The notes below the pieces were generated by a model. That model had not been told where the DNA came from. It saw only the letters and a program-made list of their open reading frames with translations, and ran no database searches. Of a DNA stretch of 64,000 nt, positions 24,166 through 55,911 are shown one piece after another. A program made the position numbers and the translations under genes. Each line of letters begins with the position of its first letter. Within the stretch, counting starts at the first letter, position 1. Source of the DNA: Candidatus Eiseniibacteriota bacterium (lineage in GTDB: Bacteria; Eisenbacteria; RBG-16-71-46; SZUA-252); NCBI GenBank assembly GCA_036274595.1, contig DASUFL010000021.1, forward strand, positions 8,521 through 72,520, given 5' to 3'.

Positions 24166-24171
24166 GGGCGC

Positions 24172-24200: not shown

Positions 24201-24461
24201 CAAGCCGATCGCATCGAGCCATGGCATATGGCTTGCAGTGCCTAGGGTTAACGGACCGCGCATCGCGGAACTGATTTCGGAGAGGACATCATTTCGCCTC
24301 GAAATCTTTTTGGGCTTGCGGAATGCACGGTCCACGCATTAGCCTCCGCAGGTCCGCATCAAGGCGACGAACAGGAAGTTCGCTAACCCCAGGGACCGGA
24401 CGGTCTTCGGACGTACCGCGTTCGGCCCTCCTGCATCGAAGACTGGGACGGAGGTATTCGT

Positions 24462-35639: not shown

Positions 35640-36128
35640 TCAGCGGCGGATCTCGATCTTGGGATGCGGCGGTTGGGCGACGGACGTGTGCGGCTCGGTG
35701 GCGCGGAGCCAGAGCGCCAGCGCGAGGGCCGCGGCGCTCGTCAGGAACGGCACCCACACCGGGACGATCCATGCGATCGGCACGAGGAAGACGACGTCCA
35801 GGTCCGCGAGCGATCGGGGAAAGCCGGTGAGCCAGCGGAGGAACGCGTAGTAGAGGATGTCCCAGATGCCGAAGATCCAGAGCCCGGCCGCCAAGCGCGC
35901 GCGGGGGGTGCGGCCCGCCAGGCAGGCCACGGCCGCGATCATCACGAGCGTGGCGATCTCACGCACCTGCTCGAGGAGGAGCGGCCCCGCGGGGATCGGA
36001 GCGAACGGAGGCGCCCAGCCTCCCGGATAGAAGAGCTGCTTCAGCGTGACCACGCAGGCGGCCTCGACGAGCGCCATGGCGGCGGCGTAGAGGCTGATCC
36101 AGGTCCAGACCGAGCGGCGCGCGATCAT
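35640..36128 (-). CDS. Conserved hypothetical membrane protein (4-5 TM)
   Basis: AMALVEAACVV, REIATLVMI, FGIWDILYY and FLVPIAW pattern; ATGA-coupled to lipM. Confidence 0.8.
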   Translation of the reverse strand: MIARRSVWTWISLYAAAMALVEAACVVTLKQLFYPGGWAPPFAPIPAGPLLLEQVREIATLVMIAAVACLAGRTPRARLAAGLWIFGIWDILYYAFLRWLTGFPRSLADLDVVFLVPIAWIVPVWVPFLTSAAALALALWLRATEPHTSVAQPPHPKIEIRR

Positions 36129-36913
36129 GCGGTCTCCACGGCCCGGGCCCGCGCGCGTTCCACGCCCCCAGGAACACAGACGTCGAACGGCGCCGCCTCG
36201 AGGGGCGCGCCCAGTCGTCCCGCGACCTTCTGGGCGAGCACGTCTCCGAGCGCCTGGGCGGACACGGAGCATCCCAGAATCTCGGCGATCGACCGAGCGT
36301 GCTCGGCCAGGCGCTCCCGCTCTCCCGGACGGTCGCCGCGGAAACGCGCAATGTCCCGGTGACGGGGCGAGAGAGGCACGGAAGCGTGACAGAGGGCCGC
36401 CCCGCGCGTGAAGCGCGATGCGATCCCGGCGACCTTGAACGCGCCCGATCGGAGCTCCCCGCTCGACGCGCGGGCGAAGCAGGGGTCGGCGCCGGGCCTC
36501 GCGGCCATGCCCCGCTCGAGGACGCGCTCCGCCTTCACGCCGAACGCCCCCACCGCATCGGCGAGCGCTTCGGCGACGAGATTCGCGTACGCGCGGGGAC
36601 CGAGGCCCCACGGTCCCGGAAGGCTCGCGGCGAGCGCGAACGTGAGCTCGCCGTCGTGGAGCACGGCGTCGCCGCCCGTCGGACGCCGCACGACGTCGAG
36701 CCCGGCCGCCCGGATCGCGCCCTTGTCCCAGCCGTCGGGAAAGGGCTCGGCGCGGCCGAGGCTGATGGCAGGAGGATCCCAGTCGTAGATGCGGAAGACG
36801 GCGCGATCCACGCCGCGCGACGCCCAGTCGAGGAGCGCGGCGTCGATCGCCATCTGGAGCGAGCCGTCCTCTTGGAGGGGCGGAAGCCGGAGAAGCCGGA
36901 GCGGGGGGCTCAC
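36125..36913 (-). CDS. lipM: Lipoate-protein ligase family, LipM-like octanoyltransferase
   Basis: MAIDAALL, RIYDW..PAISLG, VVRRPTGGDAVLH, and PCF...FKVAG (LipM catalytic Cys and Lys positions). Catalytic domain only. Confidence 0.7.
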   Translation of the reverse strand: MSPPLRLLRLPPLQEDGSLQMAIDAALLDWASRGVDRAVFRIYDWDPPAISLGRAEPFPDGWDKGAIRAAGLDVVRRPTGGDAVLHDGELTFALAASLPGPWGLGPRAYANLVAEALADAVGAFGVKAERVLERGMAARPGADPCFARASSGELRSGAFKVAGIASRFTRGAALCHASVPLSPRHRDIARFRGDRPGERERLAEHARSIAEILGCSVSAQALGDVLAQKVAGRLGAPLEAAPFDVCVPGGVERARARAVETA

Positions 36914-36920
36914 GGCACGA

Positions 36921-37571
36921 TCAGAACCGGAGGGCGCCCAACCAGTCGTCGAGCAGGAACATCACGCGGCCGATCAGGAGCGAGACGCGCGCCATCACCG
37001 TGTATCCGTACGACGCGCCGAAGCTCACCATGAGGAAGTAGATCCCGAGCCGCGCCGTCCCCCCGAGCGCACCCTTGTGCTCCTTCGAGAAGAAGAAAAA
37101 GATCAGCGTGCAGACGAGACCCACGACGAGAAGGATGTTGCCGATGCTCGTGCCGATGCTCCCCGGCACCCAGAGCGGCAGGATGGTGCCGTGGATCTGC
37201 TCCACGAAGTCTCCCTGGCCGAATCCCGTGATGCGGAGCGCGGGATAGACGCCGAGCACGAAGGCGATCGGCCACCGCGACAGCCAGTCCCCGCGCGGGA
37301 AGAAGCGCGAGAAGAGCATGATCCCGAGGATGAGCGGGACGACGAGGAGCCAGTGGTAGTCCTTCGCGAACGAGGAGAAGAGCGGCACGAACAGGTTCGG
37401 GTACACCGACGAGATCATCGTGAGCACCACGTAGTAGCCCGCCGAGATTCCGACGAACAGGTGCTCGCAGAATTTGTACACCGGGTTGTCCCGGTACAGG
37501 AAGCTGAAGATGCCGAGCGTGAGGAGCGCCGCGATCCAGATGCCGATGTCGTGGCTCGGGTGGAGGCTCAC
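36921..37571 (-). CDS. Uncharacterised membrane protein (~6 TM), GlmL-associated module
   Basis: WIAALLTLGIFSFLYRDNPVYKFCEHLFVGISAGY...FLMVSFGASYGYTVMARVSLLIGR; GTGA-coupled start at 37571. Confidence 0.85.
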   Translation of the reverse strand: MSLHPSHDIGIWIAALLTLGIFSFLYRDNPVYKFCEHLFVGISAGYYVVLTMISSVYPNLFVPLFSSFAKDYHWLLVVPLILGIMLFSRFFPRGDWLSRWPIAFVLGVYPALRITGFGQGDFVEQIHGTILPLWVPGSIGTSIGNILLVVGLVCTLIFFFFSKEHKGALGGTARLGIYFLMVSFGASYGYTVMARVSLLIGRVMFLLDDWLGALRF

Positions 37572-38398
37572 CGCCCGTTCCCCTTCTTCGGCCCGGCGAT
37601 GAACGCCAGGTTGCCGAGCACGATCATGAACGCGATGAACACGTGCGCGAGCGACTGCGCGTCCATGCCCCGGGTCGCGAGTCCGGGCGCGCCCACGAGG
37701 ACCTCGTATTCGGCCGCGCCCGCCATGCCGCCGAGGAGGCCGTGGAGCTGGCCCGCCTGGAGGTACGGGTAGTACTCCGGCGCGCTCACCGCGGTCACCC
37801 CGGCGACCATCGGCACGTGGTACCGGGACACCACCTGCTGCACCCATTCCTTCGTCCCCGGATAACCGGCGCTGATGTCCACGATGAGCCGGATCTGCTG
37901 GAAGTTCTGGATGCCCTTCATCACCGGGATCGTGTTGACCGCGACGCCGCGGTTGTCGACGGGGAACGTGTTGGGAATGCTCTGCCCCATCTGCGACATC
38001 ACGAGCTCGTTCCCGACCTTGTAGCCCAGGTTCACGTAATCGACGCCCTGCGTCTTGTGGTACTCCTCCCCCGCGATGCGCAGCACCTGGTCGGTGAGGG
38101 GCGGTCCTGCGGGGTAGAGCGCGAGGGCGATGATCCTCATGTTCCGCCGCATGAGCTGGCGCACGGCCGCCAAGTGCATCGGATAGTTCTCGGCGGACGT
38201 GCCGGGATCGTAGTCGCCGGACAGGAGCACCACCGATCCCTCGGGCAGCTTTTCGATCGCGTCGTAGAAGCCGCGCGAGCGATTGCTGGGCAGGACCGGA
38301 GCGATGTGGAAGCTGAAGAGGAGCGGCACGATCACGAGGAGCGCGACCCCGAGGAAGATCCACCGCCGATCCAGATGACGCAGGGCGGCCAGGCTCAT
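37568..38398 (-). CDS. Uncharacterised membrane protein (TM - alpha/beta domain - TM), GlmL-associated module
   Basis: RRWIFLGVALLVIVPLLF TM; soluble region with VLLSGDYDP, DYVNLGY and PYLQAGQLHGLLGGMAGAAEYE; C-terminal TM. ATGA-coupled start at 38398. Confidence 0.85.
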   Translation of the reverse strand: MSLAALRHLDRRWIFLGVALLVIVPLLFSFHIAPVLPSNRSRGFYDAIEKLPEGSVVLLSGDYDPGTSAENYPMHLAAVRQLMRRNMRIIALALYPAGPPLTDQVLRIAGEEYHKTQGVDYVNLGYKVGNELVMSQMGQSIPNTFPVDNRGVAVNTIPVMKGIQNFQQIRLIVDISAGYPGTKEWVQQVVSRYHVPMVAGVTAVSAPEYYPYLQAGQLHGLLGGMAGAAEYEVLVGAPGLATRGMDAQSLAHVFIAFMIVLGNLAFIAGPKKGNGR

Positions 38399-39027
38399 GA
38401 GTCCCCTCCGCCGTACGTCTTCTCGAGCCCCAGGATCACGCGGATGCCGGTGGCCATGACGCCCAGCGCGGCGCCGATCAGGATCCCTCGCTTCGCCGCG
38501 TTCTGCGGGATCTCCATGAGCCAGTCGGCCGCGGCCGGGATGGCCGGGTGGATCGCGGCCCCGAGCGGCACCCGTCCGATCATCAGGATGAACGCCGCGA
38601 TCGCGAGGAGGAGCGCCTCGACCGAGCGGATGCGGAACGCGCGGAACGCCGCCGACGCGATGAAGAAGGCGAGGAGCGAGAACATGGTCGCCGTCATCGG
38701 CGAGTAGAAGGTGCGATAGATCCACTGGAAGCGCGAATCCACGTCCGTGTAGTGGTTCCCCTCCGAGAAGCCGACCACCATCGTGACGAGGAGGCCCGCG
38801 ATCAAGACCATCTTGTACGGCCAGTCACGCTCCTTGCGGGAGACCTGCCGCGTGTTGATGCGCAGGAGATTCGCGACGCCCAGCACATAGGTGAACCCGA
38901 CCACCACGATCGCCCAGTTCTGAAGCCCCTCATACGCGGCCTTGACCGTCGGATGCGGCACGAACCAGGCCAGCAGCATGAAGAGTCCCGCCACGAGCGT
39001 GATGACGATCGGGATCTCGCGCTTCAC
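38395..39027 (-). CDS. Uncharacterised membrane protein (~6 TM), GlmL-associated module
   Basis: Six hydrophobic segments; ATMFSLLAFFIASAAFRAFR, GRVPLG and KRGILIGAALG motifs. Confidence 0.85.
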   Translation of the reverse strand: MKREIPIVITLVAGLFMLLAWFVPHPTVKAAYEGLQNWAIVVVGFTYVLGVANLLRINTRQVSRKERDWPYKMVLIAGLLVTMVVGFSEGNHYTDVDSRFQWIYRTFYSPMTATMFSLLAFFIASAAFRAFRIRSVEALLLAIAAFILMIGRVPLGAAIHPAIPAAADWLMEIPQNAAKRGILIGAALGVMATGIRVILGLEKTYGGGDS

Positions 39028-39037
39028 GCGGGCGTCC

Positions 39038-40207
39038 TCACTGGGTCGAGAAGAAGTCGCCGAGCCAGGTCTGGCCGAACGTGGCCAGGATCGAGCCCAG
39101 GACGATGATGGCGATCATGAGGATCTTCACGGAGTCGGTCGCCTTCAAGCTCCCGAGCAGCCGCGCGTCGTTCGAGAGGAGCGCGCTGGCGGCGAAGTAC
39201 TCCTCGCCGATCAGCGTGTAGTCGCACGCCACCACGAAGAAGGGCATCTGATGGACGTTGGCCGTCCCGGCGATCTGGATGGCGCCCACGGCGTGCCCCG
39301 TCTCCGCGAGGAGGAGTGATTCCGCGAAGAAGGCTCCGAGCAGGAGATTCGCCGCGGGCCGCTCGCGGAGCATCATGCCGTTGACCGCGGCCACGTAGGC
39401 GAACTGCTCCGAGGTGACGTAGCGGACCTGGTCACTCTTGTAAACGTCCGATCGCCCCACGTCGGCGTACGCCGACTTCACGACCTCTTCGGCGACCGTG
39501 TAGACGCCCGGGGAGTTCGTCGGGACGTTGAGGGCGGTCTCGTACTTGGCGGCGATCCGCGCCACGCGGCCCAGGAGGATCATGCTCGCGATGGTCTGAA
39601 TGTCGTCGATTTCCTGCACGCCGGGCACATAGAGCACCCCCTTCCCCATCTCGGTCGCGCGTCCGACCGCCTCTTCGATCGCATCGAGTCCCGGGATCTT
39701 GCGGAAGACCCACTTCGTGCCGCCCTCGGATTTCCGGATGTACCAGAAGAGGAGCGCGAAGAAGACCCCCGCGACCACGAGCACGTTGAACTTGCTCCAA
39801 TCGAAGAGATTCACCGACGCGTGCGCAGGACCGGAGACCTCGGAATCGAGGGAGGGATCCGCGGGCGAGGCCACGAGCTGGTACTCGTAGGCGGTGCCGT
39901 TCTGCGCCGTGTCGTCCGAGTAGTGCGAATCGGTTCCGTCGACCGTCGCGACCGGCGCGAACGTTCCCCCCTGCTCGCGTCGGACGAGGATCCAGGAGGT
40001 CGGATGGTGATCCGGCGGCGTCCAGGACACGTCGACGCTGCCGCCCCCGTCGTTGGGGGTATCGCCCGCCTGGAGCGGGAATGCGGAAGCGAGGGCCGGG
40101 AAGGCGAAAATCGAAACCGCGGTGAGGAGGAACGCGGCCACCGCGAGCCGAGAGAGTCGGTCGCCGGGAGATCGTAGCAGGATCCGCGCGCCGCGGAAGT
40201 TTGTCAG
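39038..40207 (-). CDS. Fibronectin type III + DUF6754 membrane protein
   Basis: Signal peptide; FN3-like domain (VSW...YSD....G..YEYQL); TM; RKIPGLDAIEEAVGRATEMG...QMPFFVVACDYTLIGEEYFAASA; C-terminal TM. Start inferred at CTG 40207; the first canonical start is GTG 40141. Confidence 0.8.
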   Translation of the reverse strand: MTNFRGARILLRSPGDRLSRLAVAAFLLTAVSIFAFPALASAFPLQAGDTPNDGGGSVDVSWTPPDHHPTSWILVRREQGGTFAPVATVDGTDSHYSDDTAQNGTAYEYQLVASPADPSLDSEVSGPAHASVNLFDWSKFNVLVVAGVFFALLFWYIRKSEGGTKWVFRKIPGLDAIEEAVGRATEMGKGVLYVPGVQEIDDIQTIASMILLGRVARIAAKYETALNVPTNSPGVYTVAEEVVKSAYADVGRSDVYKSDQVRYVTSEQFAYVAAVNGMMLRERPAANLLLGAFFAESLLLAETGHAVGAIQIAGTANVHQMPFFVVACDYTLIGEEYFAASALLSNDARLLGSLKATDSVKILMIAIIVLGSILATFGQTWLGDFFSTQ

Positions 40208-40309
40208 GGAGTGGCTCCCGTACGGGTATGAAGCGCTCCAGCCCTGCCGCGATCGGAACTCAGCACGTGGCGCGTTTCCTCCCAGGTACCAACCGGCAAA
40301 ACCGCAACA

Positions 40310-40338
40310 ACCGTAGACTTCGACGCCGCTTCTGTCAA
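40310..40338 (-). promoter_or_regulatory. Internal sigma70 promoter for the membrane-protein sub-operon
   Basis: TTGACA (40338-40333), N17, TACGGT (40315-40310). Confidence 0.75.
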
Positions 40339-40342
40339 GAAA

Positions 40343-41464
40343 TTAGGACTCGATCATCTCCACATTGGCGCGCGGAAGGAGCGCCTTCGATCCGTTCCCG
40401 AAATCCACTTCGAGCACGCGCACCTTGGCCTCGGTCTCGAGAGCCATGAGCTCGGGCGGCAGCGCGACCACCTTCCCCAGATGCCCGAAGTAGGGCTCGC
40501 GGATGACGCGGATCAGGCTTCCCAGCTCGAGGCCGCCATGGCCGGCCCCGGCGCCGTCGGCCCCGGCCGAGATCTCTTGCGGCACGACGATCTCCGGCCG
40601 CAGCACGCCGGCCCGGATCTGCGTGGCTCCGCTCACCGACGCCTTCTTCCCTTCGCACTGCTTCAAGAGCTCGAACGTGCGGCCCGCCATCGGGATCTCG
40701 CCGAAGCCCTCGGTCACGACGAGCGTGATGCCCTTCTCCTCCGATCCCGTGATCGCCACGCCCAGGTCGTAGCCCAGGAACTCGCGGAGATCCTGATCGT
40801 CGAAACCTCCCACGACGACCGCGCGCGCGCCTTTCTGGATGGCGACGCGGAGCACCTTGGTGCTCACGTGCGAGCCGCCCACGAGGACCTTCCCGCGGAC
40901 GTTGTCGCCGATCTTGGCCTCGGTGAGGGCCTCGCCCGGACCGTCCACGCACACGTGGAGCGTCCCGACGGTCTCGCCGCCGATGCCGAAGATTCCCTGG
41001 ATGAAGCTGCCGCGCGTCTCCACCGTCACGCCCTGGCCCTCGTGCACTTCGACGACGGTGCCGTCGACGTACGCGTCCACCTCCACGGGGATCGGAGGCT
41101 CGCGCAGGATGGCTTGCCCGGTCACGGTCGAGATGCTCTCGAGCGTCGAATCGATGGGCGCCATGCACTTCGACTTGAAGAGTCCGAAGAACGATTTGCT
41201 CTCGGCGAAAGCTTCGCCCTTCTTCAAGGTGGAGCCGACCGGCTTGACGAGGCAATCCGGGACGTCCTCGGGAAGCACGCCGAGGATGTTCGCGGCGTTC
41301 ACCGTCTGCACGTTCCCGGGCAGCTCCGTGCGCGCGACGACCGTCTCCGCCTCGACCTTCTGCCCCAGCTTCACGAGCACGTCTCCCGCGAGCGGGAGCT
41401 TGCGCTCCCGGTGGAGCACCGTGAACCGGGCCACCTTGAGACCGGGGGTGTAGGAGTGAGCCAT
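40343..41464 (-). CDS. Uncharacterised soluble protein: barrel-sandwich-hybrid repeats + swivel-like alpha/beta domain + KOW/SH3-like C-terminus
   Basis: GDVLVKLGQKV, LVKPVGSTLKKGE...APIDSTLESI, YVDGTVVEV, GKVLVGG...GARAVVVGG, and GSLIRVIREPYFGHLGKVV. Starts 3 nt after the glmL-like stop. Confidence 0.85.
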   Translation of the reverse strand: MAHSYTPGLKVARFTVLHRERKLPLAGDVLVKLGQKVEAETVVARTELPGNVQTVNAANILGVLPEDVPDCLVKPVGSTLKKGEAFAESKSFFGLFKSKCMAPIDSTLESISTVTGQAILREPPIPVEVDAYVDGTVVEVHEGQGVTVETRGSFIQGIFGIGGETVGTLHVCVDGPGEALTEAKIGDNVRGKVLVGGSHVSTKVLRVAIQKGARAVVVGGFDDQDLREFLGYDLGVAITGSEEKGITLVVTEGFGEIPMAGRTFELLKQCEGKKASVSGATQIRAGVLRPEIVVPQEISAGADGAGAGHGGLELGSLIRVIREPYFGHLGKVVALPPELMALETEAKVRVLEVDFGNGSKALLPRANVEMIES

Positions 41465-41467
41465 GGG

Positions 41468-43288
41468 TCAGACCCTCGCCAGGACCGGGTAGACGTCGAG
41501 GGCCTCGTTCCACTCGGCCAGCTTGGTGATCCTCTGGGTTCGATCCTGCGGGAGGACGAAGGGTTGGCGGCCGCGGCAGTCGAAGATCACGCCGACGACC
41601 CCGCCGCGGAGCGTCACCTCGCGCTCCCTCCCCTTGCCCGCGCCCACGTCGAGGCCGCGGTCGGGCCGGAGCATCGCCTTCACGGTCTGGCCGTCGGGAA
41701 CCGGGATGAGCCTCAGGTAGCCGAACGGCACCGACACCTCCTCCTTCCGCCCGCCCTGGAACTCGAGCGACGCCTTGAGCGCCGTCACGCCATCCTTGCA
41801 CGCGCCCACCGGAGCGACGCTCGCGCCGAGTCGAATCAGGCAGTCCTTCTCGAACACCTGCTTCGCCGCCTCGGGATGCACGGTCGAGAGGACGCCGAGC
41901 TGCGGCATCATGAAGATCGAATCGACCGCGAGCTCCGTGACGTGCTCGGGGAGGAACGCGTCGAGCATCATGAGCGCCGACTGCGCGCGCCTGGGCGCGT
42001 GCGAGAGGACGCCGCCGCTCCCGACGAGGAGGTCGAGATGGTCGAGGCGCACGAGCGTCGCGCCGCTCCCCGTCTGCTCGAAGGTGTCGGAGATCGTCCG
42101 CTCCTGCTGCACTCCCTTCAGGCCGACGGCGAGCATCTTGTGCTGGTCGAACGCGAGCCGGAGCGCCTCCCGCGCGATCGCCTGCTCGATCACGAGCTCC
42201 TCCAGCGTCTGCGGGATCGTGGTCGGGCGGATCATCTTGTTCTTGATGCGGTTGCGGAGGTCGGGCTCGCCGATCTCGAAGGGCACCCAGCGGAGGATGT
42301 TCGGAAGGCCGGCCTCCGCGAGCACGTTCGACACGCTGTAGGACATGCCGAGGTTCGCGCTCACGGTGCGATTGAAGACCCCCTGGAAGACCGAGAAGAC
42401 GTCCGTCGTGGCCCCGCCGATGTCGACGCCGATGACGTTGATCTTCTCGTCCCGCGCGATTCGCTCCATGATCAGCCCGACCGCGCCGGGAGTCGGCATG
42501 ATCGGCACCGGCGACCAGGTCATGAGCTTCTTGTACCCGGGCGCGTGCGCCATCACGTGCTCCATGAAGAGGTCGTGGATCTTGTCGCGGGCGGGCGAGA
42601 GATTCTCGCGCTCGAGGGTCGGGCGGAGATTGTCGGTGATGACCAGCGCGGTCTTCGAAGCGAGCCGCTCCTCGACGATCTGGCGCGCGTCCTTGTTCCC
42701 CGCGTAGATCACGGGGAGCTCGTAGCCCGCGCCGAGCCGCGCCTTGGGATCGGCCGCGGCGAGAAGCTCGGCCATCTCGGCCACGTGCGAGGTGGTGCCG
42801 CCGTCCACGCCCCCCGAGAGGAGGATCATGTCGGGGCGGAGCTGGCGGATCCGCTTGATCTTCTCGTGCGGGAGCCGCCCGTCGTTGCTCGCGATCACGT
42901 CCATGACGATCGCGCCCGCGCCGAGCGCGGCGCGCTGCGCGCTCTCGCCGGTCATGCTCTTCACCACCCCCGAGACCATCATCTGGAGCCCGCCCCCGGC
43001 GCTCGAGGTCGAGATGTAGAGGTCGACCCCCTCGTTCCCCTTCTGCGGCGAGAGGATCCGCTCGCCGTCGAGGAGCTTTCGGCCGGCCAGCTCCTCGACC
43101 TCCATGATGGCGTTCAGCACGCCGCGCGTGACGTCCTCGAACGGCGCTTCCACCGTGGTGGGCGCCTCGCCGCGCACGATGAGCCGGTACTCCGCCCCCC
43201 GGCGCTCGATCAGGATCGCCTTGGTGGTCGTGCTGCCGCAGTCGGTCGCGAGGATCGACTGGATGTCGTCGGGCTTGGGAATGCTCAC
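41468..43288 (-). CDS. glmL: GlmL/MutL-like (glutamate mutase L family) ASKHA-fold ATPase
   Basis: Phosphate-1 ATDCGSTTTKA, SSAGGGLQM, LSGGVDGG, phosphate-2 VDIGGATTDVFS, RTVSANLGMSYS and GSGGVLSH. 606 aa. Confidence 0.85.
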   Translation of the reverse strand: MSIPKPDDIQSILATDCGSTTTKAILIERRGAEYRLIVRGEAPTTVEAPFEDVTRGVLNAIMEVEELAGRKLLDGERILSPQKGNEGVDLYISTSSAGGGLQMMVSGVVKSMTGESAQRAALGAGAIVMDVIASNDGRLPHEKIKRIRQLRPDMILLSGGVDGGTTSHVAEMAELLAAADPKARLGAGYELPVIYAGNKDARQIVEERLASKTALVITDNLRPTLERENLSPARDKIHDLFMEHVMAHAPGYKKLMTWSPVPIMPTPGAVGLIMERIARDEKINVIGVDIGGATTDVFSVFQGVFNRTVSANLGMSYSVSNVLAEAGLPNILRWVPFEIGEPDLRNRIKNKMIRPTTIPQTLEELVIEQAIAREALRLAFDQHKMLAVGLKGVQQERTISDTFEQTGSGATLVRLDHLDLLVGSGGVLSHAPRRAQSALMMLDAFLPEHVTELAVDSIFMMPQLGVLSTVHPEAAKQVFEKDCLIRLGASVAPVGACKDGVTALKASLEFQGGRKEEVSVPFGYLRLIPVPDGQTVKAMLRPDRGLDVGAGKGREREVTLRGGVVGVIFDCRGRQPFVLPQDRTQRITKLAEWNEALDVYPVLARV

Positions 43289-43689
43289 GAAGATTCCTTT
43301 CGGTTCCGCGCCTCGTCGCGCTCCGCGCGCCGGCGCGCCTTGGCCGCCCGCTCCTCGTCGCGAACCGCCTCGTCGCGCCGCTCGATCTTCACGAGCAGCG
43401 CCTCCAAGGTGTCGCGCCGCTCCACGAGGGCGGCGAATCGCTCGTAGTCCGGAACCGTGAAGAAGGCCCGGACCATCGGTTCGAAAAAGTAGAGCGCCTG
43501 GCTGCTCACGAACGAGAGCGGCTTGACGCTCTCGAGCGTGAGGATGGCCGGCACCGTCATCCGGAGCGCGACCACGCGCTCCGCCACCCGGTCGAGCAAG
43601 GCCTCGTCTTCCGGCGACCGCGTGTCAGGCGGCGCGGGACTTGAGGCGCGCTTCCACGAACGCAACCACTTGATCGCGGTTCCCTCCAA
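43285..43689 (-). CDS. Conserved hypothetical helical protein
   Basis: LLDRVAERVV..RMTVPAILTLESVKPLSFVSSQ..FFEPMV pattern with a charged coiled tail; GTGA-coupled to glmL. The start is uncertain. Confidence 0.75.
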   Translation of the reverse strand: MEGTAIKWLRSWKRASSPAPPDTRSPEDEALLDRVAERVVALRMTVPAILTLESVKPLSFVSSQALYFFEPMVRAFFTVPDYERFAALVERRDTLEALLVKIERRDEAVRDEERAAKARRRAERDEARNRKESS

Positions 43690-44077
43690 AGAGGAGCCGG
43701 ACGCCGCGATACGCTTCGAGCCAGCTCCGCTTCTCGAATGGGCTCAGGAAAACGCCCGTCTGGTCCACCGTCATGCGCCGCATCTCCGTCCACGGGCGGA
43801 CTCGGGCCACGCCCAGGGACCGCACCTCGACCGCGTCGTCGGTCAGCCGGTACGTCGTCGGCAAGAGAAACGACGAGAGCGAGACGAGAATGAAGAGCGG
43901 CGTCGCCACGCCCAGCACCCGATCCTGGGTCCCGTGCGCCACGAGCACGCCAAGAACGATCGCGGAGGCCGCGAGCACGGCCGCCGCGAGCGGCCGCTCG
44001 CGCGCGGGCCACGCGGTCCAGGTGAGCGCGCCTTCCGGCGTTTGGGCCGGGCGGCGCTCCCGCTCAGCCTCCGGCAC
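43625..44077 (-). CDS. Two-TM membrane protein with a bacterial PH-like C-terminal domain
   Basis: W..WP..ERP, two TM helices, then PTTYRLTDDAVEV.....VRPWTE. Confidence 0.75.
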   Translation of the reverse strand: MPEAERERRPAQTPEGALTWTAWPARERPLAAAVLAASAIVLGVLVAHGTQDRVLGVATPLFILVSLSSFLLPTTYRLTDDAVEVRSLGVARVRPWTEMRRMTVDQTGVFLSPFEKRSWLEAYRGVRLLFGGNRDQVVAFVEARLKSRAA

Positions 44078-45533
44078 CCTCGGCCTCGAGATCCTGCCAG
44101 GAGAGGATCAGCTTCCTCGCGGCCCGCCCCTCGTCCAGGCGGCGCACCGGCGTCTGCGTGGGCGCCTGGCGGACGCGTTCCGGATCCTCCACGCTCTCCC
44201 GGTCGATCTGCAGCATCGCATCCGCGAAGGCGTCGAGGCTCGCTTTCGTCTCCGTCTCGGTGGGCTCGATCATGAGCGCCTCCTCGACGATGAGCGGGAA
44301 GTAGATCGTCGGCGCGTGCATGCCGAAATCGAGGAGCCGCTTCGCGATGTCGAGCGCCTTCACCCCGCGCGCCTTCTGGCGCGACGCGGAGAGAACGAAC
44401 TCGTGCATGCAGGGCCCGTCGTGGGACGGGGCATACGCGTCCTTGAGCCTCGCCTTGAGATAGTTCGCGTTGAGGATGGCCTCGCGGCTCGCCTCGGCGA
44501 TGCCCGACGCTCCGAGCGAGCGCATGTAGCAGAGCGCCCGCACCAGAATTCCAAAGTTCCCGTAATACGAGTGCACGCGCCCGATCGACTTGGGACGGTC
44601 GTAGCTCCAGCGGTACCGGTCGCCGTCCTGCTCCACCACCGGCATCGGGAGATACGGCTCGAGGTCCTTCCGGACGCAGAGAACGCCGCCGCCGGGGCCG
44701 CCCCCGCCGTGCGGCGTCGAGAACGTCTTGTGGAGATTGATGTGCGCGAAGTCGAAGCCCATCGCGCCCGGGCTCGCGAGCCCCATCATCGCGTTCAGGT
44801 TCGCGCCGTCCAGATAGAGGAGCGCGCCGGCGTCGTGGATGAGCTTCGCGATCGTCCCGACCTGCCGCTCGAAGATCCCGAGCGTGTTCGGGTTGGTCAG
44901 CATCATCGCCGCCGTCTTGGGCGAGATCGCGCGCTTCAAGGCGTCGAGGTCGATGCACCCGTCAGGACCGGACGGGATCTGCACCACCCGGTAGCCCACC
45001 TGATGCACCGTCGACGGGTTCGTGCCGTGGGCCGAGTCGGGCACGATCACTTCCTCGCGCGGGTCGCCGTGATCGCTGTGGTACGCCCGTGCCATGAGCA
45101 CCGCGGCCAATTCGCACTGCGCGCCGGCGGCGGGCTGCGTGGTCACGCCCGGCATTCCCATCACGACGCGGAGCCATTCGTGGAGCTCGAGAACGACGGC
45201 GAGCGCTCCCTGCGCCAGCTCGTCCGGCTGGAGCGGATGGATCGCGGCGAAGCCCGGGATTCGCGCCATCTCGTCGTTCAGCTTCGGGTTGTATTTCATC
45301 GTGCACGACCCGAGCGGATAGATGGCCTTGTCGATATGGTGGTTCAAGGTCGAGAGGTTCACGAAGTGGCGCATCGCGACCGGCTCGGAGATCTCGGGGA
45401 GCGCGGCGCGGTCCTTCCGGATGCGGTCGGCCGGCAGCAGGCGATCGACGCCGCGGGCGGGCACGTCGAGCGGCATGAGCCGCGGCCCGCGGTGTCCTTC
45501 GACGGAGAGCTCGCTCAGGGTCAGCTCTGACAC
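44064..45533 (-). CDS. gcvPB: Glycine dehydrogenase (decarboxylating) subunit 2
   Basis: YPLGSCTMKYNPK, QPAAGAQCE, SAHGTNP, YLDGANLNA and PLP-Lys HINLHKTFSTPHGGGGPG. GTG 45533 follows GGAGGAGG. Confidence 0.98.
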   Translation of the reverse strand: MSELTLSELSVEGHRGPRLMPLDVPARGVDRLLPADRIRKDRAALPEISEPVAMRHFVNLSTLNHHIDKAIYPLGSCTMKYNPKLNDEMARIPGFAAIHPLQPDELAQGALAVVLELHEWLRVVMGMPGVTTQPAAGAQCELAAVLMARAYHSDHGDPREEVIVPDSAHGTNPSTVHQVGYRVVQIPSGPDGCIDLDALKRAISPKTAAMMLTNPNTLGIFERQVGTIAKLIHDAGALLYLDGANLNAMMGLASPGAMGFDFAHINLHKTFSTPHGGGGPGGGVLCVRKDLEPYLPMPVVEQDGDRYRWSYDRPKSIGRVHSYYGNFGILVRALCYMRSLGASGIAEASREAILNANYLKARLKDAYAPSHDGPCMHEFVLSASRQKARGVKALDIAKRLLDFGMHAPTIYFPLIVEEALMIEPTETETKASLDAFADAMLQIDRESVEDPERVRQAPTQTPVRRLDEGRAARKLILSWQDLEAEGAGG

Positions 45534-46906
45534 GCGGCCTCCTCCCTCGGGCTCTTGGCGTGGGCCTTGGCCCACGACGCGAGCGCTTCGACGTAGCGGT
45601 CCAGGTCTTCCTTGCTCCGCTTCTCGGTCACGGCCACGAGGAGATCGTTCGGACGGGAGCGGTCGAACCGGGCGAGCGGGATGCCCGCGAGGATGCGGCG
45701 GTCGAGCGCCGCGCGCGCGAACGACTCCGCCGCCGCGGGAAGGCGAAGCACGAGCTCCCGGAAGAAGGGCGCGTCCTCGTGCGCCAACCTGATGCCTGGG
45801 ATCTCGCGGACCCGATCGGCGAGGTAGTGCGCGCGCTCCAGGCACTGGGTCGCCACGTCCTTGAGTCCCTCCGCGCCGAGGAGCGCCAGGTAGACCGTGT
45901 TCGCGAGGGCCATCAGCCCCTGGTTGGTGCAGATGTTGGAGGTCGCGCGCTCCCGCCTGATGTGCTGCTCGCGGGTCTGGAGCGTCAGCACGTAGCCGCG
46001 CTTCCCCTCGAGATCCACGGTCACCCCCGCGAGACGCCCCGGGAGCCTTCTCACCTCCGCCTTCCGGATGGCGAAGAAGCCGACCAGGGGGCCGCCGTAG
46101 GCCATCGGAACGCCGAGCGGCTGCCCTTCGCCGAAGACCACGTCCGCTCCGTCGTGCCCCGGCGGACGCAGCAGGGCGAGCGCCACCGGATCCGCCCCCG
46201 CGAGCGAATAGGCGCCGATCTCGTGGGCGGCCTTGGTCAGCGCGGCGCCATCTTCCACCACGCCCTCGAAGTTCGGCTGCGCCCAGATCAGGGCCGCCAC
46301 GTCGGACCCGGCCGTGGCGATCGGTCCCGCGGGCGTGCGCCCGTTCTCGAGCGCGATCTCCTCGATGTGGAATCCGCCCGCCGACGCGTAGGTGCGGAGC
46401 ACCTCGCGCGTGTGCGGGTGGACGCCGGCCGAGCAGAGCATGCGCTTCTTGCCCGTGGCGCCGGCCGCGAAGTGGGCCGCTTCCACGGCCGCCGTCGCCC
46501 CGTCGTACAGGGACGCGTTGGCGACTTCCATGCCGGTCAGCTCGCGGATCATGGACTGGTACTCGAAGATCACCTGCAGCGTGCCCTGCGCGACCTCGGG
46601 CTGGTAGGGCGTGTAGGCCGTCGCATACTCGGAGCGCGACACGATCGAGCGGAGCGCGGCCGGGATGAAGTGGTCGTAGATGCCGCCGCCCAGGAAGCAG
46701 GCATACCGGCCCGCGTCGGCGTTCCGCTCGCCCCACTGCTCGAAGCGGCGCGCGATCTCGTACTCCGCGAGCGGCGCGGGAAGCGGAAGCGGGCCCTGGA
46801 CGCGGAATTCAGCGGGAATCGAGGCCCAGAGATCCTCGTCCCGGGAGACGCCGATCCGCTCCAGCATGGCGCGGCGCTCGGCGTCGCTCCGTCCGACGAA
46901 GCTCAC
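45521..46906 (-). CDS. gcvPA: Glycine dehydrogenase (decarboxylating) subunit 1
   Basis: FLGGGIYDH, YTPYQPEVAQG, ANASLYDGATA, GEGQPLG and TREQHIRRERATSNICTNQ. Confidence 0.98.
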   Translation of the reverse strand: MSFVGRSDAERRAMLERIGVSRDEDLWASIPAEFRVQGPLPLPAPLAEYEIARRFEQWGERNADAGRYACFLGGGIYDHFIPAALRSIVSRSEYATAYTPYQPEVAQGTLQVIFEYQSMIRELTGMEVANASLYDGATAAVEAAHFAAGATGKKRMLCSAGVHPHTREVLRTYASAGGFHIEEIALENGRTPAGPIATAGSDVAALIWAQPNFEGVVEDGAALTKAAHEIGAYSLAGADPVALALLRPPGHDGADVVFGEGQPLGVPMAYGGPLVGFFAIRKAEVRRLPGRLAGVTVDLEGKRGYVLTLQTREQHIRRERATSNICTNQGLMALANTVYLALLGAEGLKDVATQCLERAHYLADRVREIPGIRLAHEDAPFFRELVLRLPAAAESFARAALDRRILAGIPLARFDRSRPNDLLVAVTEKRSKEDLDRYVEALASWAKAHAKSPREEAACQS

Positions 46907-47289
46907 GCGTGCGCCCCCAGGGTCTTCTCGTAGTCCTCGGCCGAGAGGAGCGCGTTCACTTCGGCGGGCGACTCGAGCCGGATGCGCACCATCCACCCGT
47001 CCTTGTAGGGCGAGCGGTTCACGAGCGCGGGATCGTCCTTGAGCGCGCCGTTCACCGCCACGATCTCGCCGGTGACCGGGGCGAAGAGATCGCTCACCGT
47101 CTTCACCGCGTCGATCGTGCCGAACGTCTTCATGTACGTCACCTTGGAGCCTGGGGCCGGGAGCTCGACGAAGATCACATCGCCCAGCTCCCCCTGCGCG
47201 TAGTCGGTCACGCCCACCACCGCCTCGCCCCCCTCGACGCGGATCCACTCGTGCTCCTTCGTGTAGCGCAGCTCGCGCGGCACGTTCAT
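46903..47289 (-). CDS. gcvH: Glycine cleavage system H protein
   Basis: YTKEHEW, GVTDYAQGELGDVIFVELP, lipoyl-Lys DAVKTVSD, and VNRSPYKDGW. Confidence 0.98.
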   Translation of the reverse strand: MNVPRELRYTKEHEWIRVEGGEAVVGVTDYAQGELGDVIFVELPAPGSKVTYMKTFGTIDAVKTVSDLFAPVTGEIVAVNGALKDDPALVNRSPYKDGWMVRIRLESPAEVNALLSAEDYEKTLGAHA

Positions 47290-48419
47290 TGCGGCCTCCT
47301 GGGTTTCGGCGATCGAACGGATCCGTGCTGGTACATCGGACGCGCGGTGACCTTGGCCGGCACGGCATGGCCGCGCGTGACCACGTCGACGGTCTGGCCT
47401 ATGGCCGAGACCTCGCGCGCGAGGTAGGCCATGGCGATCGGACGCCCGATCGAGAGGCCCATCGAGCCGCTCGTGACCTTGCCGACGTTGGCCCCGTCCT
47501 TGTCGACCTCCGCGCCGGCGCGCGCGATCTTGTCGCCATCGAGGACCAGCCCCTGGAGCCGGCGCGACACGCCCAGCTCCTTGGACCGGCGGAGCGATTC
47601 CGCCCCGATGAACTCGGACTTGTCCCACCGCACGGTCCACGCGAGCCCCGCCTCGAGCGGGTTCGTGGTCTCGTCGATGTCGTTCCCGTAGAGGCAGTAG
47701 CCCATCTCGAGCCTGAGCGTGTCCCGCGCGCCGAGACCGATCGGGCGGATTCCCTCGGGGCTCCCCGCCTCGAAGACGCGATCCCAGAGCGCGAGCGCGC
47801 GCGGCGCGCGGACGTAGATCTCGAACCCGTCCTCGCCCGTGTAGCCGGTGCGCGAGATGAGCGTCCAGTCGTCGCCGGTTCCGATCTCGAATCCTTCGTA
47901 GAAGCCGAGCGCGCGGACGCGCTCGCCGTAGAGCCGCGCGACCACGTCCTCGGACTTGGGACCCTGCACCGCGAGCTGCGCCGTCCCTGCGTTCTCGTCA
48001 TGCACGGTGACGTCGGCCGGGCAGTGCTCCTGGACCCAGGCGAGGTCCTTCTCGAAGTTCGCGGCGTTCACGACGAGGAGCCGGTCCTCGCCCAGTCCGT
48101 AGACGAGGAGGTCGTCGATGATTCCCCCGCTCTCGAGGCACATGGGCGTGTAGACCACCTTGCCTTCCGGGAGCTGGCCCGCCTCGTTCGTGACGAGCCG
48201 GTTCGCGAGGGCGACGGCGCCGCCGCCGGTCAGCCGGATCTCGCCCATGTGGGAGACATCGAAGACCCCGACCCCGGTGCGGACGGCCCGGTGCTCGGCC
48301 ATGATCCCTTCGTACTGGATCGGCATCTCGTGCCCGGCAAAGGGGACCATCTTGGCCCCGAGGGCCACGTGGCGGGGGTAGAACGGAGTGCGCGTGAGCG
48401 CGGAGGCCGTTTCGAGCAT
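47286..48419 (-). CDS. gcvT: Glycine cleavage system aminomethyltransferase T
   Basis: GVFDVSHMGEI, SRTGYTGEDGFEI and GLGARDTLRLEMG. Confidence 0.98.
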   Translation of the reverse strand: MLETASALTRTPFYPRHVALGAKMVPFAGHEMPIQYEGIMAEHRAVRTGVGVFDVSHMGEIRLTGGGAVALANRLVTNEAGQLPEGKVVYTPMCLESGGIIDDLLVYGLGEDRLLVVNAANFEKDLAWVQEHCPADVTVHDENAGTAQLAVQGPKSEDVVARLYGERVRALGFYEGFEIGTGDDWTLISRTGYTGEDGFEIYVRAPRALALWDRVFEAGSPEGIRPIGLGARDTLRLEMGYCLYGNDIDETTNPLEAGLAWTVRWDKSEFIGAESLRRSKELGVSRRLQGLVLDGDKIARAGAEVDKDGANVGKVTSGSMGLSIGRPIAMAYLAREVSAIGQTVDVVTRGHAVPAKVTARPMYQHGSVRSPKPRRPQ

Positions 48420-48463: not shown

Positions 48464-48491
48464 ACCTTAGCACATCCCCCGTGGATTTCAA
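48464..48491 (-). promoter_or_regulatory. sigma70 promoter for the gcv super-operon
   Basis: TTGAAA, N16 (ending TGC), TAAGGT; the 5' UTR is only about 40 nt. Confidence 0.65.
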
Positions 48492-51340: not shown

Positions 51341-51351
51341 GGGAGCCTCGA

Positions 51352-51360
51352 ATCTTAGCA
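51352..51360 (-). promoter_or_regulatory. Extended -10 element upstream of uvrA
   Basis: TG-C-TAAGAT, 11 nt before ATG. Confidence 0.5.
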
Positions 51361-51388
51361 CACGCGCGCGGCGGATCCGCCCCGCGGC

Positions 51389-52615: not shown

Positions 52616-52618
52616 CGG

Positions 52619-53872: not shown

Positions 53873-54588
53873 GCGACGGGCGTCGCGCCCGCTCTGGCCA
53901 CGGGCCTGTCGCTCTCGATCTTCCCGTCCCGAAGCCGGATGATGCGGTGCGCGCGCGCGGCGACGTCCTCCTCGTGCGTGACCAGGATGACCGTGTTCCC
54001 CTTGGCGTGGATCTCGTCCATCAGCCCGAGGATCTCGAGCCCCGTGCGCGAGTCGAGGTTTCCGGTGGGCTCGTCGGCGAGCAGGAGGGACGGGTTGTTC
54101 ACGAGCGCGCGCGCGATCGCGACGCGCTGCCTCTGGCCGCCCGAGAGCTCGTTCGGCCGGTGGTGCGTGCGGTCTCCCAGACCGACCATCGCGAGCATCG
54201 CCTTCGCGCGCTCGCGGCGCTCGGTCGCCGGCGCCCCCGAGTAGATGAGCGGCAGCTCCACGTTGTGGAGCGCGTCGGCGCGCGGAAGCAGGTTGAAGGT
54301 CTGGAAGACGAACCCGATCTCCTGGTTCCGGATCCGCGCGAGCTCGTCGTCGTCGCGCTCGCGAATCTCGGTTCCCCGGAGCTTGTACGAGCCGCTCGTC
54401 GGCGTGTCGAGGCAGCCGACGATGTTCATGAGGGTCGACTTGCCCGACCCCGACGGGCCCATGATCGCCACGTACTCGCCCGCCAGGATCCGCAGGCTGA
54501 CGCCGTCCAGCGCGTTCACCTCGGTCGTGCCCATCTCGTACGTCTTTCGGACGTCGGCGATGTCGATCAGGACGCCGTTCGTGCTCAC
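53869..54588 (-). CDS. ABC exporter ATP-binding subunit (MacB/LolD type)
   Basis: [33 protein letters not shown] and VTHE. Confidence 0.97.
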
Positions 54589-55883: not shown

Positions 55884-55911
55884 GAATGGGTCTCCTGGGT
55901 TGTCATCGGCG

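Follow-up and report, generated by a model that had tools for sequence, protein, structure and literature searches.

The glycine-cleavage operon of a soil bacterium (Candidatus Eiseniibacteriota) was found to hold seven to eight genes without assigned function, which encode a very strongly conserved ATPase of the actin/Hsp70 fold with partner proteins and a four-protein inner-membrane set. These genes, designated O1 to O8, recur in at least 10 bacterial phyla and therefore probably encode a hitherto undescribed cellular machine, which would consist of two parts. The explanation that best accounts for the data as a whole, to which we assign a probability of about 40%, is that an ASKHA ATPase drives a machine in the inner membrane, with an envelope or lipid-linked compound as its substrate. 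A previous reading made from the sequence only had proposed an uncharacterised eight-gene ATPase/membrane-complex module in this operon, and its interpretation as a whole was partly supported.

The gene block and its internal boundary

The window, i.e., the whole stretch of DNA analysed, is 64,000 nucleotides long. Within it, all genes of the block are on the minus strand, in the order gcvT-gcvH-gcvPA-gcvPB, O1 to O8, a LipM-like gene and, last, a gene for a small membrane protein. The features are:

47286-48419, minus strand: gcvT, aminomethyltransferase (ORF and translation); first gene of the co-directional block
46903-47289, minus strand: gcvH, H protein (ORF); overlaps gcvT by 4 nt
45521-46906, minus strand: gcvPA, P-protein subunit 1 (ORF)
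44064-45533, minus strand: gcvPB, P-protein subunit 2 (PLP subunit); its 3' end shares 14 nt with the start of O1
43625-44077, minus strand: O1, 150 aa, two TM helices and a small, weakly bPH-like C-terminal domain
43285-43689, minus strand: O2, 134 aa, helical
41468-43288, minus strand: O3, 606 aa, GlmL/MutL-family ASKHA ATPase (Pfam)
40343-41464, minus strand: O4, 373 aa, hybrid-barrel/PA-like/KOW protein
40310-40338, minus strand: putative internal promoter in the O4-O5 spacer, TTGACA-N17-TACGGT (conservation and motif enrichment)
39038-40207 (CTG start, preceded by GGGAG) or 39038-40141 (GTG start), minus strand: O5, FN3-TM-DUF6754-TM
38395-39027, minus strand: O6, 210 aa, six hydrophobic segments
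37568-38398, minus strand: O7, 276 aa, TM helix at each end, periplasmic α/β domain
36921-37571, minus strand: O8, 216 aa, polytopic
36125-36913, minus strand: LipM/LplA-family octanoyl/lipoyl transferase gene, catalytic domain only; starts 7 nt after O8
35640-36128, minus strand: membrane protein gene, 162 aa; overlaps the lipM stop; restricted to Eisenbacteria

ORFs and translations agreed with the gene order and co-directional block given in the sequence-only reading, and its tally of junctions was reproduced: neighboring genes overlap at 9 junctions, are 3-10 nt apart at 3, and are widely spaced at one. This large gap, between O4 and O5, measures 135 nt with the CTG start of O5 and 201 nt with the GTG start. 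The four gcv products belong to the glycine cleavage system: they are 40-49% identical to WOR-3 genes with Pfam GCV_T, GCV_H, GDC-P and GDC-P/GcvP2_C and 70-98% identical among Eisenbacteria loci, and GcvT is 41-91% identical to its counterparts in loci where these carry GCV_T. The LipM-like protein contains an LplA/LipB-type catalytic domain (Pfam LplA-B_cat PF21948, E=9e-21; PF03099, E=2e-8), with weak matches to LplA-type NCBIfam models that fall far under their cut-offs. Its gene keeps this position across Eisenbacteria, and a lipM gene is also found near the module in another locus (L173). Beyond MutL and DUF6754, discussed below, the O1-O8 proteins had no Pfam family, PDB relative or paper.

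The O4-O5 gap had been proposed to hold an internal promoter. TTGACA-N17-CTAnnGT is kept in 13/13 Eisenbacteria loci, where the remaining spacer is variable, and the window contains four copies of TTGAC[AT]-N16-18-TAnnnT, all of them on the coding strand, compared with 0.27 expected; however, a generic sigma-70 scan did not call a promoter in this spacer. O1-O8 is composed of two sub-modules, the ATPase set (O1-O4) and the membrane set (O5-O8), and this phylogenetically conserved putative promoter divides them.

The ATPase set and the B12-mutase question

O3 is a member of the Pfam MutL family (PF13941; E=2.5e-128, 429 bits, cut-off 27), which agrees with its initial assignment as a GlmL-like ATPase. 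The ASKHA phosphate-1, phosphate-2 and adenosine motifs are intact (D16-x-G-S-T, D289-I-G-G-A-T-T-D and G423-S-G-G) and are invariant in 14 diverse orthologues. It is also better conserved than any other protein of the block, with 58-87% identity across phyla, and its conservation exceeds that of UvrA in the same loci (69% vs 62% in L089; 86-87% vs 79-81% in L008 and L022).

GlmL/MutL, encoded between glmS and glmE of the B12-dependent glutamate mutase, is regarded as a mutase-reactivating chaperone (PMC4682846), and O3 shares both family and ASKHA motifs with it. Databases call the O3 family "glutamate mutase L" or "methylaspartate mutase"; together with the strong Pfam match, this would fit an ordinary GlmL/MutL accessory of a B12-dependent mutase encoded elsewhere. 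However, tblastn searches (E. coli O157 queries, E<=0.01) of the window and of 169 related loci, which add up to 2.35 Mb, detected no homologs of GlmS or GlmE. O3 also scored far under the NCBIfam equivalog cut-offs for GlmL (NF040745; 231 bits, cut-off 475) and Or-4 (NF040744; 218 bits, cut-off 600), and under that of the TIGR01319 family model (163 bits, cut-off 204). It is 28% identical to the operon-encoded GlmL of E. coli O157:H7 over residues 12-420 and, unlike GlmL, carries an extra C-terminal domain of ~120 aa and shows far higher cross-phylum conservation. Moreover, its fixed partners, O2 and O4, are absent from canonical glm operons, and the membrane complex further sets it apart from GlmL. 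By genomic context, the accessory explanation is largely refuted, and we consider it extremely improbable; a B12 role of the module is unsupported. Thus, the reported absence of B12 enzyme subunits held, and the plain mutase accessory role, named in the sequence-only reading as the case against it, was not found. At present, databases probably mislabel the O3 family as "glutamate mutase L".

O2, which is nearly always located directly upstream of O3, combines a charged tail with a hydrophobic core that is conserved (RMTVPAILFLESVKPLSFVGSQA..FFEP). Neither O2 nor O4 matched a Pfam family. The AlphaFold model of O4 (pLDDT 80) and Foldseek agreed with its description as a hybrid/KOW protein, with N-terminal beta-rich sandwich-barrel-hybrid domains followed by a PA-like alpha/beta domain and, at the C terminus, a KOW domain. 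O4 is a predicted cytoplasmic partner protein. O1 is present in some lineages only. It had been described as two TM helices plus a PH-like part; the helices were confirmed, whereas the PH-like part rests on weak Pfam bPH_6 matches in 2/5 orthologues. Among PADLOC anti-phage models, O1-O8 were unmatched except for a sub-threshold match of O1 to NsnC (E=0.0017, 15.9 bits).

The link to glycine cleavage proved genuine and was seen repeatedly, but O2-O3 carry it, not the membrane set. In O3-anchored metagenome loci, gcvPB is directly upstream of O2-O3 in 20/54 cases, usually with overlapping stop and start codons, and it is the most frequent neighbor from outside the module. This adjacency recurs in four or more distinct clades of the O3 tree, including WOR-3, and on a complete WOR-3 chromosome gcvPB-O2-O3 occurs as a three-gene unit alone between unrelated genes. 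No O4-O8 genes were found within 10 kb of O3 (with O2) in WOR-3 and Poribacteria.

The membrane set and its linkage to the ATPase

Pfam, a PDB profile and an AlphaFold model all supported the description of O5 as an FN3-DUF6754 protein. Residues 110-363 matched DUF6754 (PF20539; E=1.2e-108, 362 bits against a cut-off of 27), and in the model (pLDDT 94) two TM helices flank an alpha/beta domain of six strands. The O5 profile matched titin FN3 (E=5e-8), residues 23-108 form a beta sandwich in the model, and the best Foldseek matches were FN3 domains; these dominated the list, and the DUF6754 domain had no significant Foldseek match in PDB. The predicted layout of O5 would be a signal peptide, a periplasmic FN3, a TM helix, a cytoplasmic DUF6754 and a C-terminal TM helix. 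In O5 relatives, DUF6754 is always C-terminal and follows periplasmic modules which vary by lineage (FN3 here; beta-propeller, HEAT or long FN3 arrays elsewhere) and range from ~90 to >1000 residues. O7 has a predicted N-in TM helix, a ~215-aa periplasmic alpha/beta domain and a second TM helix. Hydrophobic segments agreed with the TM helices previously predicted for the membrane proteins. O6, O7 and O8 had no known family or functionally characterized homolog.

A cross-genome neighborhood analysis of O3, DUF6754 and the membrane genes revealed recurrent linkage. Contiguous O5-O6-O7-O8 was observed in 54/58 O5-anchored loci from GTDB species genomes. In O3-anchored metagenome loci, O4 adjoins O3 in 43/57, and a membrane set is located within 10 kb in 14/25. 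O2-O3-O4 adjoin the membrane set in Eisenbacteria (O1-O2-O3-O4-O5..O8), Zixibacteria and Coatesbacteria ([O5-O8]-O2-O3-O4-[O5'-O7']), Marinimicrobia (O3-O4-O2-O5..O8), Nitrospira (O2-O3-O4-O5..O8) and Brocadiia (O3-PD40-O4-O5-O6-O7-O8-OmpA-O5'), with one to three copies of the membrane set; two Zixibacteria loci (L115 and L128) have three divergent membrane sets beside O3-O4. Since the gene order varies between phyla, we argue for selection rather than one inherited arrangement. These data support a conserved multi-subunit system and not a chance neighborhood, and O1-O8 probably form one such system. The picture of a single eight-gene module was modified: seven genes are widely conserved, whereas O1 is lineage-limited, and each of the two sub-modules, with a putative promoter at their boundary, lacks the other in its vicinity in many lineages. 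For example, O5-O8 without the ATPase set nearby were found in Calditrichota-like loci, some Zixibacteria and other loci. Finding each set without the other nearby implies that they can at least be encoded apart.

It is conceivable, though rather unlikely, that these are two unrelated systems which are merely neighbors, O1-O4 being a GlmL-like chaperone or reactivase for the PLP-dependent glycine decarboxylase and O5-O8 an independent DUF6754 complex. Apo/holo cycling or repair of GcvPB would be examples of such a role of O1-O4. The accepted chaperone function of GlmL/MutL, the gcvPB adjacency, the lone WOR-3 unit, the putative promoter conserved between O4 and O5 in Eisenbacteria and the separate occurrence of each set are all consistent with this explanation. 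However, the sets are adjacent in six or more phyla, where gene orders are rearranged and one ATPase set may be surrounded by duplicated membrane sets, which is hard to explain without functional coupling. In addition, O3-O4 are located beside O5-O8 without nearby gcv genes in many lineages, among them Nitrospira, Marinimicrobia, Zixibacteria and Coatesbacteria, and we know of no ATP-dependent reactivase for P-protein.

Catabolic operons often carry their own uptake system, and the module lies within the gcv operon in several lineages. The transport role suggested in the sequence-only reading would make the module a primary-active solute transporter for glycine, one-carbon or lipoate metabolism, with O6/O8 as permease, O3 as energizer and O7 contributing a tethered periplasmic binding domain. 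The architecture, in which a cytoplasmic ATPase is combined with two polytopic proteins of ~210 aa and a periplasmic alpha/beta domain, resembles that of binding-protein-dependent importers, and the presence of more than one membrane set per ATPase set is reminiscent of shared energizing modules. However, no transporter family (Pfam) matched O6, O7 or O8, even over 24-28 diverse orthologues, and outside Eisenbacteria the membrane set is usually away from gcv. The large, variable periplasmic domains of O5 would be unusual in a small-solute importer, and the extreme conservation of O3 is atypical of transporter ATPases. We regard this possibility as improbable.

A proposed two-part machine and its relation to known systems

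In the proposed ASKHA-driven machine, the O3 ATPase would act at the cytoplasmic surface of the membrane with the small helical O2 and with O4, and O1 may tether this set in some lineages. The inner-membrane complex would comprise the polytopic O6 and O8, O7 with its two TM helices and periplasmic domain, and O5 with its cytoplasmic DUF6754. ATP binding and hydrolysis by O3 might be transmitted via O4 and O2 to DUF6754, which would drive conformational work in the O6/O8 core and in the domains of O7 and O5 that face the periplasm. Between one and three membrane sets may be served by a single ATPase set, and expression of the ATPase set may be coupled to that of glycine decarboxylase (gcvPB). 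Whether the system performs ATP-driven membrane work is, in our estimate, evenly balanced.

The work would most likely consist in handling an envelope or lipid-linked substrate, or in moving it across the inner membrane or out of it. Genomic neighbors in other phyla suggest a connection that is more with envelope and lipid synthesis. Such neighbors were seen in independent lineages: in 9 loci a GT2 glycosyltransferase gene separates O4 from O5, in 8 a LiaF-like gene lies between O6 and O7, and in 5 O5 has a bactofilin gene beside it; OmpA-like and PD40 genes are inside the Brocadiia cluster. The module is near plsY, a CDP-alcohol transferase gene and KDO genes in Nitrospira, and near cdsA and a lipid kinase gene in Marinimicrobia, with a TonB-dependent receptor gene downstream. 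Other neighbors are rpmF-plsX-fabH (WOR-3), fabD-fabG-acpP-fabF-rnc-lipM (L173) and a gene for a PlsC-like acyltransferase (L083). Such a cargo, taken by itself, is doubtful and its class is speculative.

It should be noted that the envelope and lipid neighbors differ by lineage and that many are growth-related housekeeping genes, which cluster with many things. The envelope hypothesis also leaves gcvPB, the commonest neighbor of O2-O3, unexplained, and the lack of characterized homologs of O6, O7 and O8 means that these proteins do not point to a substrate.

Among known systems, Rnf/Nqr offers a superficial parallel. The size and topology of O6 and O8 (~210 aa) are like those of RnfA/E, the TM-anchored alpha/beta O7 is like RnfG, and the N-terminal barrel-sandwich hybrid of O4, whose homologs give faint RnfC_N matches, is like RnfC and NqrA. 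A redox-driven or redox-coupled ion pump of this type, passing reducing equivalents from glycine cleavage to the membrane, is disfavored and appears very improbable. PF02508 matched 2/28 O6 orthologues (E=0.18) and 0/24 O8 orthologues, so that no significant family match places O1-O8 in Rnf/Nqr. O3, O4 and O5 have no invariant CxxC or Fe-S pattern, flavin-binding family or heme motif, and the module contains an ATPase instead of an L-protein or dehydrogenase gene. Thus, a redox role is unsupported, and the suggested energy coupling to glycine-cleavage reducing equivalents found no support in the sequences.

TonB-ExbBD, TolQRA-Pal and GldLM/PorLM combine a conserved membrane core with a variable periplasmic reach, as seen in O5, and the PD40 and OmpA-like genes in Brocadiia and the TonB-dependent receptor gene in Marinimicrobia fit this parallel. 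However, these systems use proton-motive force via MotA/ExbB-type stators, whereas the module has no such family and is linked to an ATPase.

By analogy only, the parts list also parallels that of LptB2FGC, MlaFEDB and ABC importers, envelope transport machines in which an ATPase in the cytoplasm is joined by two polytopic proteins and by bitopic proteins carrying periplasmic domains, and one ATPase set with one to three membrane sets may resemble the shared energizer of ECF transporters. The position of the Nitrospira module near KDO and phospholipid genes might be compared with that of the E. coli lpt genes, which neighbor kds genes. In these systems, unlike ours, the energizer linked to the membrane set is not an ASKHA protein; no ABC_tran or permease family (Pfam) was detected in O1-O8 and their orthologues, which places them outside ABC-type transporters, including Lpt, Mla and ECF.

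The ASKHA reactivases of B12 enzymes (DdrA/DdrB of diol/glycerol dehydratase, and EutA) pair an ATPase of ~600 aa with a subunit of ~100-130 aa and use ATP to pry open their partner. O3 had no PDB chain match by sequence or profile search, and its linked partners are the PLP subunit GcvPB and membrane proteins rather than a B12 enzyme. However, the sizes of O3 and O2 parallel this pairing, and by analogy these reactivases may provide a plausible mechanistic model for the ATPase set.

The gene block and its internal promoter

The window (~69% G+C) contains a long run of minus-strand genes, backed by third-position GC, which from high to low coordinates reads uvrA, gcvT, gcvH, gcvPA, gcvPB, O1-O8, a LipM/LplA-family gene, a gene for a 162-aa membrane protein and gpmI. 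Here, O1-O8 are the eight genes between gcvPB and the LipM-like gene. We divide them into an ATPase set (O1, two transmembrane (TM) helices; O2, 134-aa helical protein; O3, GlmL/MutL-family ASKHA ATPase; O4, multidomain KOW protein) and a membrane set (O5-O8, of which O5 carries DUF6754).

48488-51361, minus strand: uvrA, next to gcvT at the high-coordinate end of the block
44077 down to 36921, minus strand: O1-O8, no functional annotation

The nearest relatives of the window were Candidatus Eisenbacteria MAGs from soil, and only 5-7% of O3 words were present in soil metatranscriptome runs. Rfam gave no match over the window, and hence no glycine riboswitch. A MacB-type tripartite efflux cluster occupies 51389-57456 (minus strand), upstream of uvrA. 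It encodes two permeases of the MacB_PCD/FtsX type, an HlyD-family adaptor and an outer-membrane factor (OEP); the ORFs scanned included no ABC ATPase gene.

The sequence-only reading had described a tightly packed operon interrupted by one internal promoter. Its junction count was borne out: nine junctions overlap, three have gaps of 3-10 nt, and the remaining one, between O4 and O5, is a long spacer. With O5 starting from the CTG at 40207, which has GGGAG ahead of it, the spacer measures 135 nt; with the first GTG it measures 201 nt. Although a generic sigma-70 scan found no match there, phylogenetic footprinting superseded this result: TTGACA-N17-CTAnnGT was kept in 13/13 Eisenbacteria loci while the surrounding spacer diverged, and TTGAC[AT]-N16-18-TAnnnT occurred 4 times in the window (0.27 expected), always on the coding strand. 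Conservation and enrichment thus support the internal promoter. Further copies of the element (TTGACA-N16-18-CTAnnnT) were located as follows.

58517-58545, minus strand: same element as in the O4-O5 spacer
24172-24200, minus strand: same element
6456-6485, minus strand: same element

The element is probably the housekeeping promoter consensus of the source organism. The copy at 24200 falls inside the annotated 5' end of the ORF at 22018-24288, which suggests that the true start of this ORF is further downstream.

Conservation and partition of the gene set

We searched one genome per GTDB species with the DUF6754 profile, and 80 loci were returned. Where sequence was sufficient, O6, O7 and O8 were found beside O5 in 54 of 58 loci. 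A reciprocal metagenome scan anchored on O3 also returned 80 loci (31-71% G+C), from which counts were taken for loci with enough flank: O4 adjoined O3 in 43/57, and the membrane set was located within 10 kb of O3 in 14/25, in up to three tandem copies. The O2-O3-O4 genes adjoin the membrane set in Eisenbacteria and occur beside it in other arrangements in Coatesbacteria, Zixibacteria, Brocadiia (Planctomycetota), Nitrospira and Marinimicrobia; in Coatesbacteria and Zixibacteria, a single ATPase set is flanked on both sides by a duplicated membrane set. By source names, O3-type proteins occur in Eisenbacteria, Zixibacteria, Coatesbacteria, WOR-3, Stahlbacteria, Cloacimonadota, Marinimicrobia, Poribacteria, Nitrospirota and Brocadiia, and O1 is restricted to some lineages. 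We estimate the probability that O1-O8 represent one conserved system at about 0.8. The full set is present in Nitrospira, and O5-O8 in a MAG labelled Caldithrix abyssi; as these carriers can be cultivated or enriched, the question is approachable by experiment.

Outside Eisenbacteria, the two sets often lie at separate sites. For example, gcvPB-O2-O3 is a stand-alone unit in a complete WOR-3 chromosome, and one Zixibacteria lineage has O3-DUF6134-O4 at one site and O5-O6-LiaF-O7-O8 at another. Copy number also varies. Four O5-anchored loci (L030, L053, L063 and L077) had at least 3.5 kb of sequence downstream and yet lacked a complete O6-O8 set; one of them, L030, is the second DUF6754 locus of the MAG that contains L025 (GFS_6454), which shows that O5 can occur as a solitary extra copy. 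In two metagenome loci (L104 and L114), O1 is followed by paralogs of O3 (57-58% identical) and O4 (39-43%) directly upstream of the canonical O2-O3-O4, indicating that the ATPase set itself is duplicated in some lineages.

The O3 ATPase and the glycine cleavage link

O3 (606 aa) matched Pfam MutL/GlmL with an E value of 2.5e-128 and scored below every curated NCBIfam cut-off (GlmL, ornithine-pathway Or-4 protein and GlmL family). Its identity to the true GlmL, encoded in the E. coli O157:H7 glmS-glmL-glmE operon, was 28% across residues 12-420, and relative to that protein it has a C-terminal extension of ~120 residues. All three ASKHA nucleotide-binding motifs were invariant in orthologs from several phyla, and O3 was the most conserved gene of the block (58-87% identity across phyla), exceeding UvrA and GcvPB of the same loci. 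PDB sequence and profile searches with O3 detected no relative.

The sequence-only reading had found no B12 enzyme subunit. Indeed, a search of the window and 169 related loci, together 2.35 Mb, detected no GlmS or GlmE homolog, and a role as a B12-mutase accessory was rejected on this basis. In NCBI and UniRef, O3 orthologs go under the names "glutamate mutase L" or "methylaspartate mutase", and JGI lists some O4 orthologs as "transcription antitermination factor NusG". These names appear to be misleading, domain-level over-annotations; the O3 labels carry a false prediction of B12-dependent glutamate fermentation into genome reconstructions of Nitrospira, Marinimicrobia, WOR-3 and others.

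Judged from O5-anchored loci alone, the gcv link looked specific to Eisenbacteria. The O3-anchored metagenome loci gave a different picture: gcvPB was directly upstream in 20 of 54, and at least four separate clades of the O3 tree have gcvPB or the whole gcvTHPAPB just ahead of (O1-)O2-O3, among them low-GC WOR-3 lineages without adjacent membrane genes. The linkage is therefore recurrent and belongs to the ATPase set. One WOR-3 locus has a 64-aa DUF6485 gene wedged between gcvPA and gcvPB (L166, 8110-8304). The gcv link may mean that the PLP subunit of P-protein is served by the ATPase set as by a GlmL-like chaperone, which is the main rival to a membrane machine; shared regulation of gcv and the ATPase set is another possibility. 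If our reading of O1-O8 as a membrane machine holds, the recurrent gcvPB coupling would suggest that in these phyla the glycine cleavage system has a need not yet recognized.

Architecture, neighbors and predicted function

In the AlphaFold model of O4 (373 aa, pLDDT 80), sandwich-barrel-hybrid domains at the N-terminus are followed by a PA-like alpha/beta domain and, at the C-terminus, a KOW domain. O4 matched no Pfam family, and Foldseek returned separate domains only (NusG domain II, RNAP Si3, PA domain and KOW), with no whole-chain relative. O4 was rejected as a lipoylated or biotinylated carrier, as it has no conserved hairpin lysine (K90 and K99 are not invariant in the alignment). In O5 (model pLDDT 94), a signal peptide and FN3 precede the DUF6754 domain, which is six-stranded alpha/beta with one TM helix on either side; the Foldseek list for O5 was filled by FN3 matches and gave no fold class for DUF6754. 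PDB sequence and profile searches with O4-O8 yielded nothing beyond FN3. No family and no PDB relative were found for O1, O2, O6, O7 and O8: Pfam gave only weak bPH_6 matches for O1 and O2, and only scattered noise (E<=10) for 24-28 diverse orthologs of O6, O7 and O8. Internal paralogy was also rejected, every probability in an all-against-all hhalign comparison of the O1-O8 profiles being below 2%, and O6/O8 and O5/O7 were undetectable as paralog pairs. The positive-inside rule and conserved DRR and RR termini would place DUF6754 in the cytoplasm and the O7 alpha/beta domain in the periplasm.

The periplasmic N-terminus of O5 ranges among relatives from nothing to more than 1000 residues and may contain FN3, a BamB-like propeller or HEAT repeats. 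One Brocadiia locus (L081) encodes a pair of DUF6754 proteins, 1276-1277 aa long, whose N-terminal parts contain no recognizable Pfam domain; in the same locus, a PD40/Tricorn_N protein separates O3 from O4, and O8 is followed by an OmpA-like protein. Accessory and neighboring genes vary by lineage, yet repeatedly concern the envelope or membrane lipids. Neighbors include plsY, CDP-alcohol transferase and KDO genes in Nitrospira, cdsA and a lipid kinase in Marinimicrobia, plsX and fabH in WOR-3, fabD-fabG-acpP-fabF and lipM in L173, and a PlsC-like acyltransferase in L083. Two insertions recur.

Between O4 and O5, membrane GT2 glycosyltransferase (Glyco_tranf_2_3, 424-572 aa): divergent Eisenbacteria, loci including L038, L048, L049, L052, L055, L062, L069 and L070
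Between O6 and O7, LiaF-like envelope-stress protein: Zixibacteria/"Ignavibacteria" MAGs, loci L035, L037, L039, L040, L044, L045, L056 and L059

In at least seven of nine GT2 loci, the O5 match starts only at about query residue 90-112, and thus the FN3 domain appears to be missing there. A conserved ~91-aa ORF follows the LiaF-like gene in five loci (L035, L037, L044, L045 and L056), and bactofilin is divergently upstream of O5 in L042, L047, L050, L054 and L058. In Zixibacteria, O3 and O4 are separated by a gene for a DUF6134 protein (L047, 15840-16580), and an O3-O4 spacing of ~900 nt, as in that locus, recurs in L093, L097, L103, L105 and L108. In a Calditrichota locus, a DUF3108 protein is just upstream of O5 (L072, 8736-9644). 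The DUF6134 and DUF3108 proteins may be lineage-specific accessory subunits.

Several known types of system were considered and rejected. PADLOC gave nothing for a defense system, no ABC or other transporter family is present in the module, and no test supported an Rnf/Nqr-like complex, the invariant residues containing no redox-cofactor motif. The parts list and the one-to-many ratio of ATPase to membrane sets suggest instead an ATP-driven inner-membrane machine reaching into the periplasm, a function that is predicted. It would combine a cytoplasmic ATPase and its adaptor-like partners with two polytopic proteins, two tethered alpha/beta domains (DUF6754 on the cytoplasmic side, held by a pair of TM helices, and that of O7 in the periplasm) and the variable O5 N-terminus. 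The recurring envelope and membrane-lipid neighbors favor an envelope or lipid-linked substrate as the cargo, a prediction that we offer tentatively. If the machine reading holds, thousands of genomes would encode an unnamed housekeeping-grade machine whose ATPase is more conserved than UvrA, and the coupling of an ASKHA ATPase to its own four-subunit membrane complex would be a novel means of energizing membrane work.

Full-text literature searches found no paper on DUF6754, PF13941, TIGR01319 or the O1-O8 cluster, and no relevant paper linking GlmL to membranes, or glutamate mutase or glycine cleavage to either Nitrospira or Eisenbacteria. The O1-O8 system has no characterized counterpart. 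A bolder and rather doubtful proposal is that it represents a new class of primary-active membrane machine, with an ASKHA (actin/Hsp70-fold) motor rather than an ABC, P-type, AAA+ or rotary one. Under this proposal, the machine would connect envelope or membrane-lipid handling with glycine decarboxylase and lipoylation metabolism. It would also be of ancient origin and found almost throughout a large group of diderm phyla, most of them uncultivated (Eisenbacteria, Zixibacteria, Coatesbacteria, WOR-3, Marinimicrobia, Cloacimonadota, Stahlbacteria, Poribacteria, Nitrospirota and anammox Planctomycetota).
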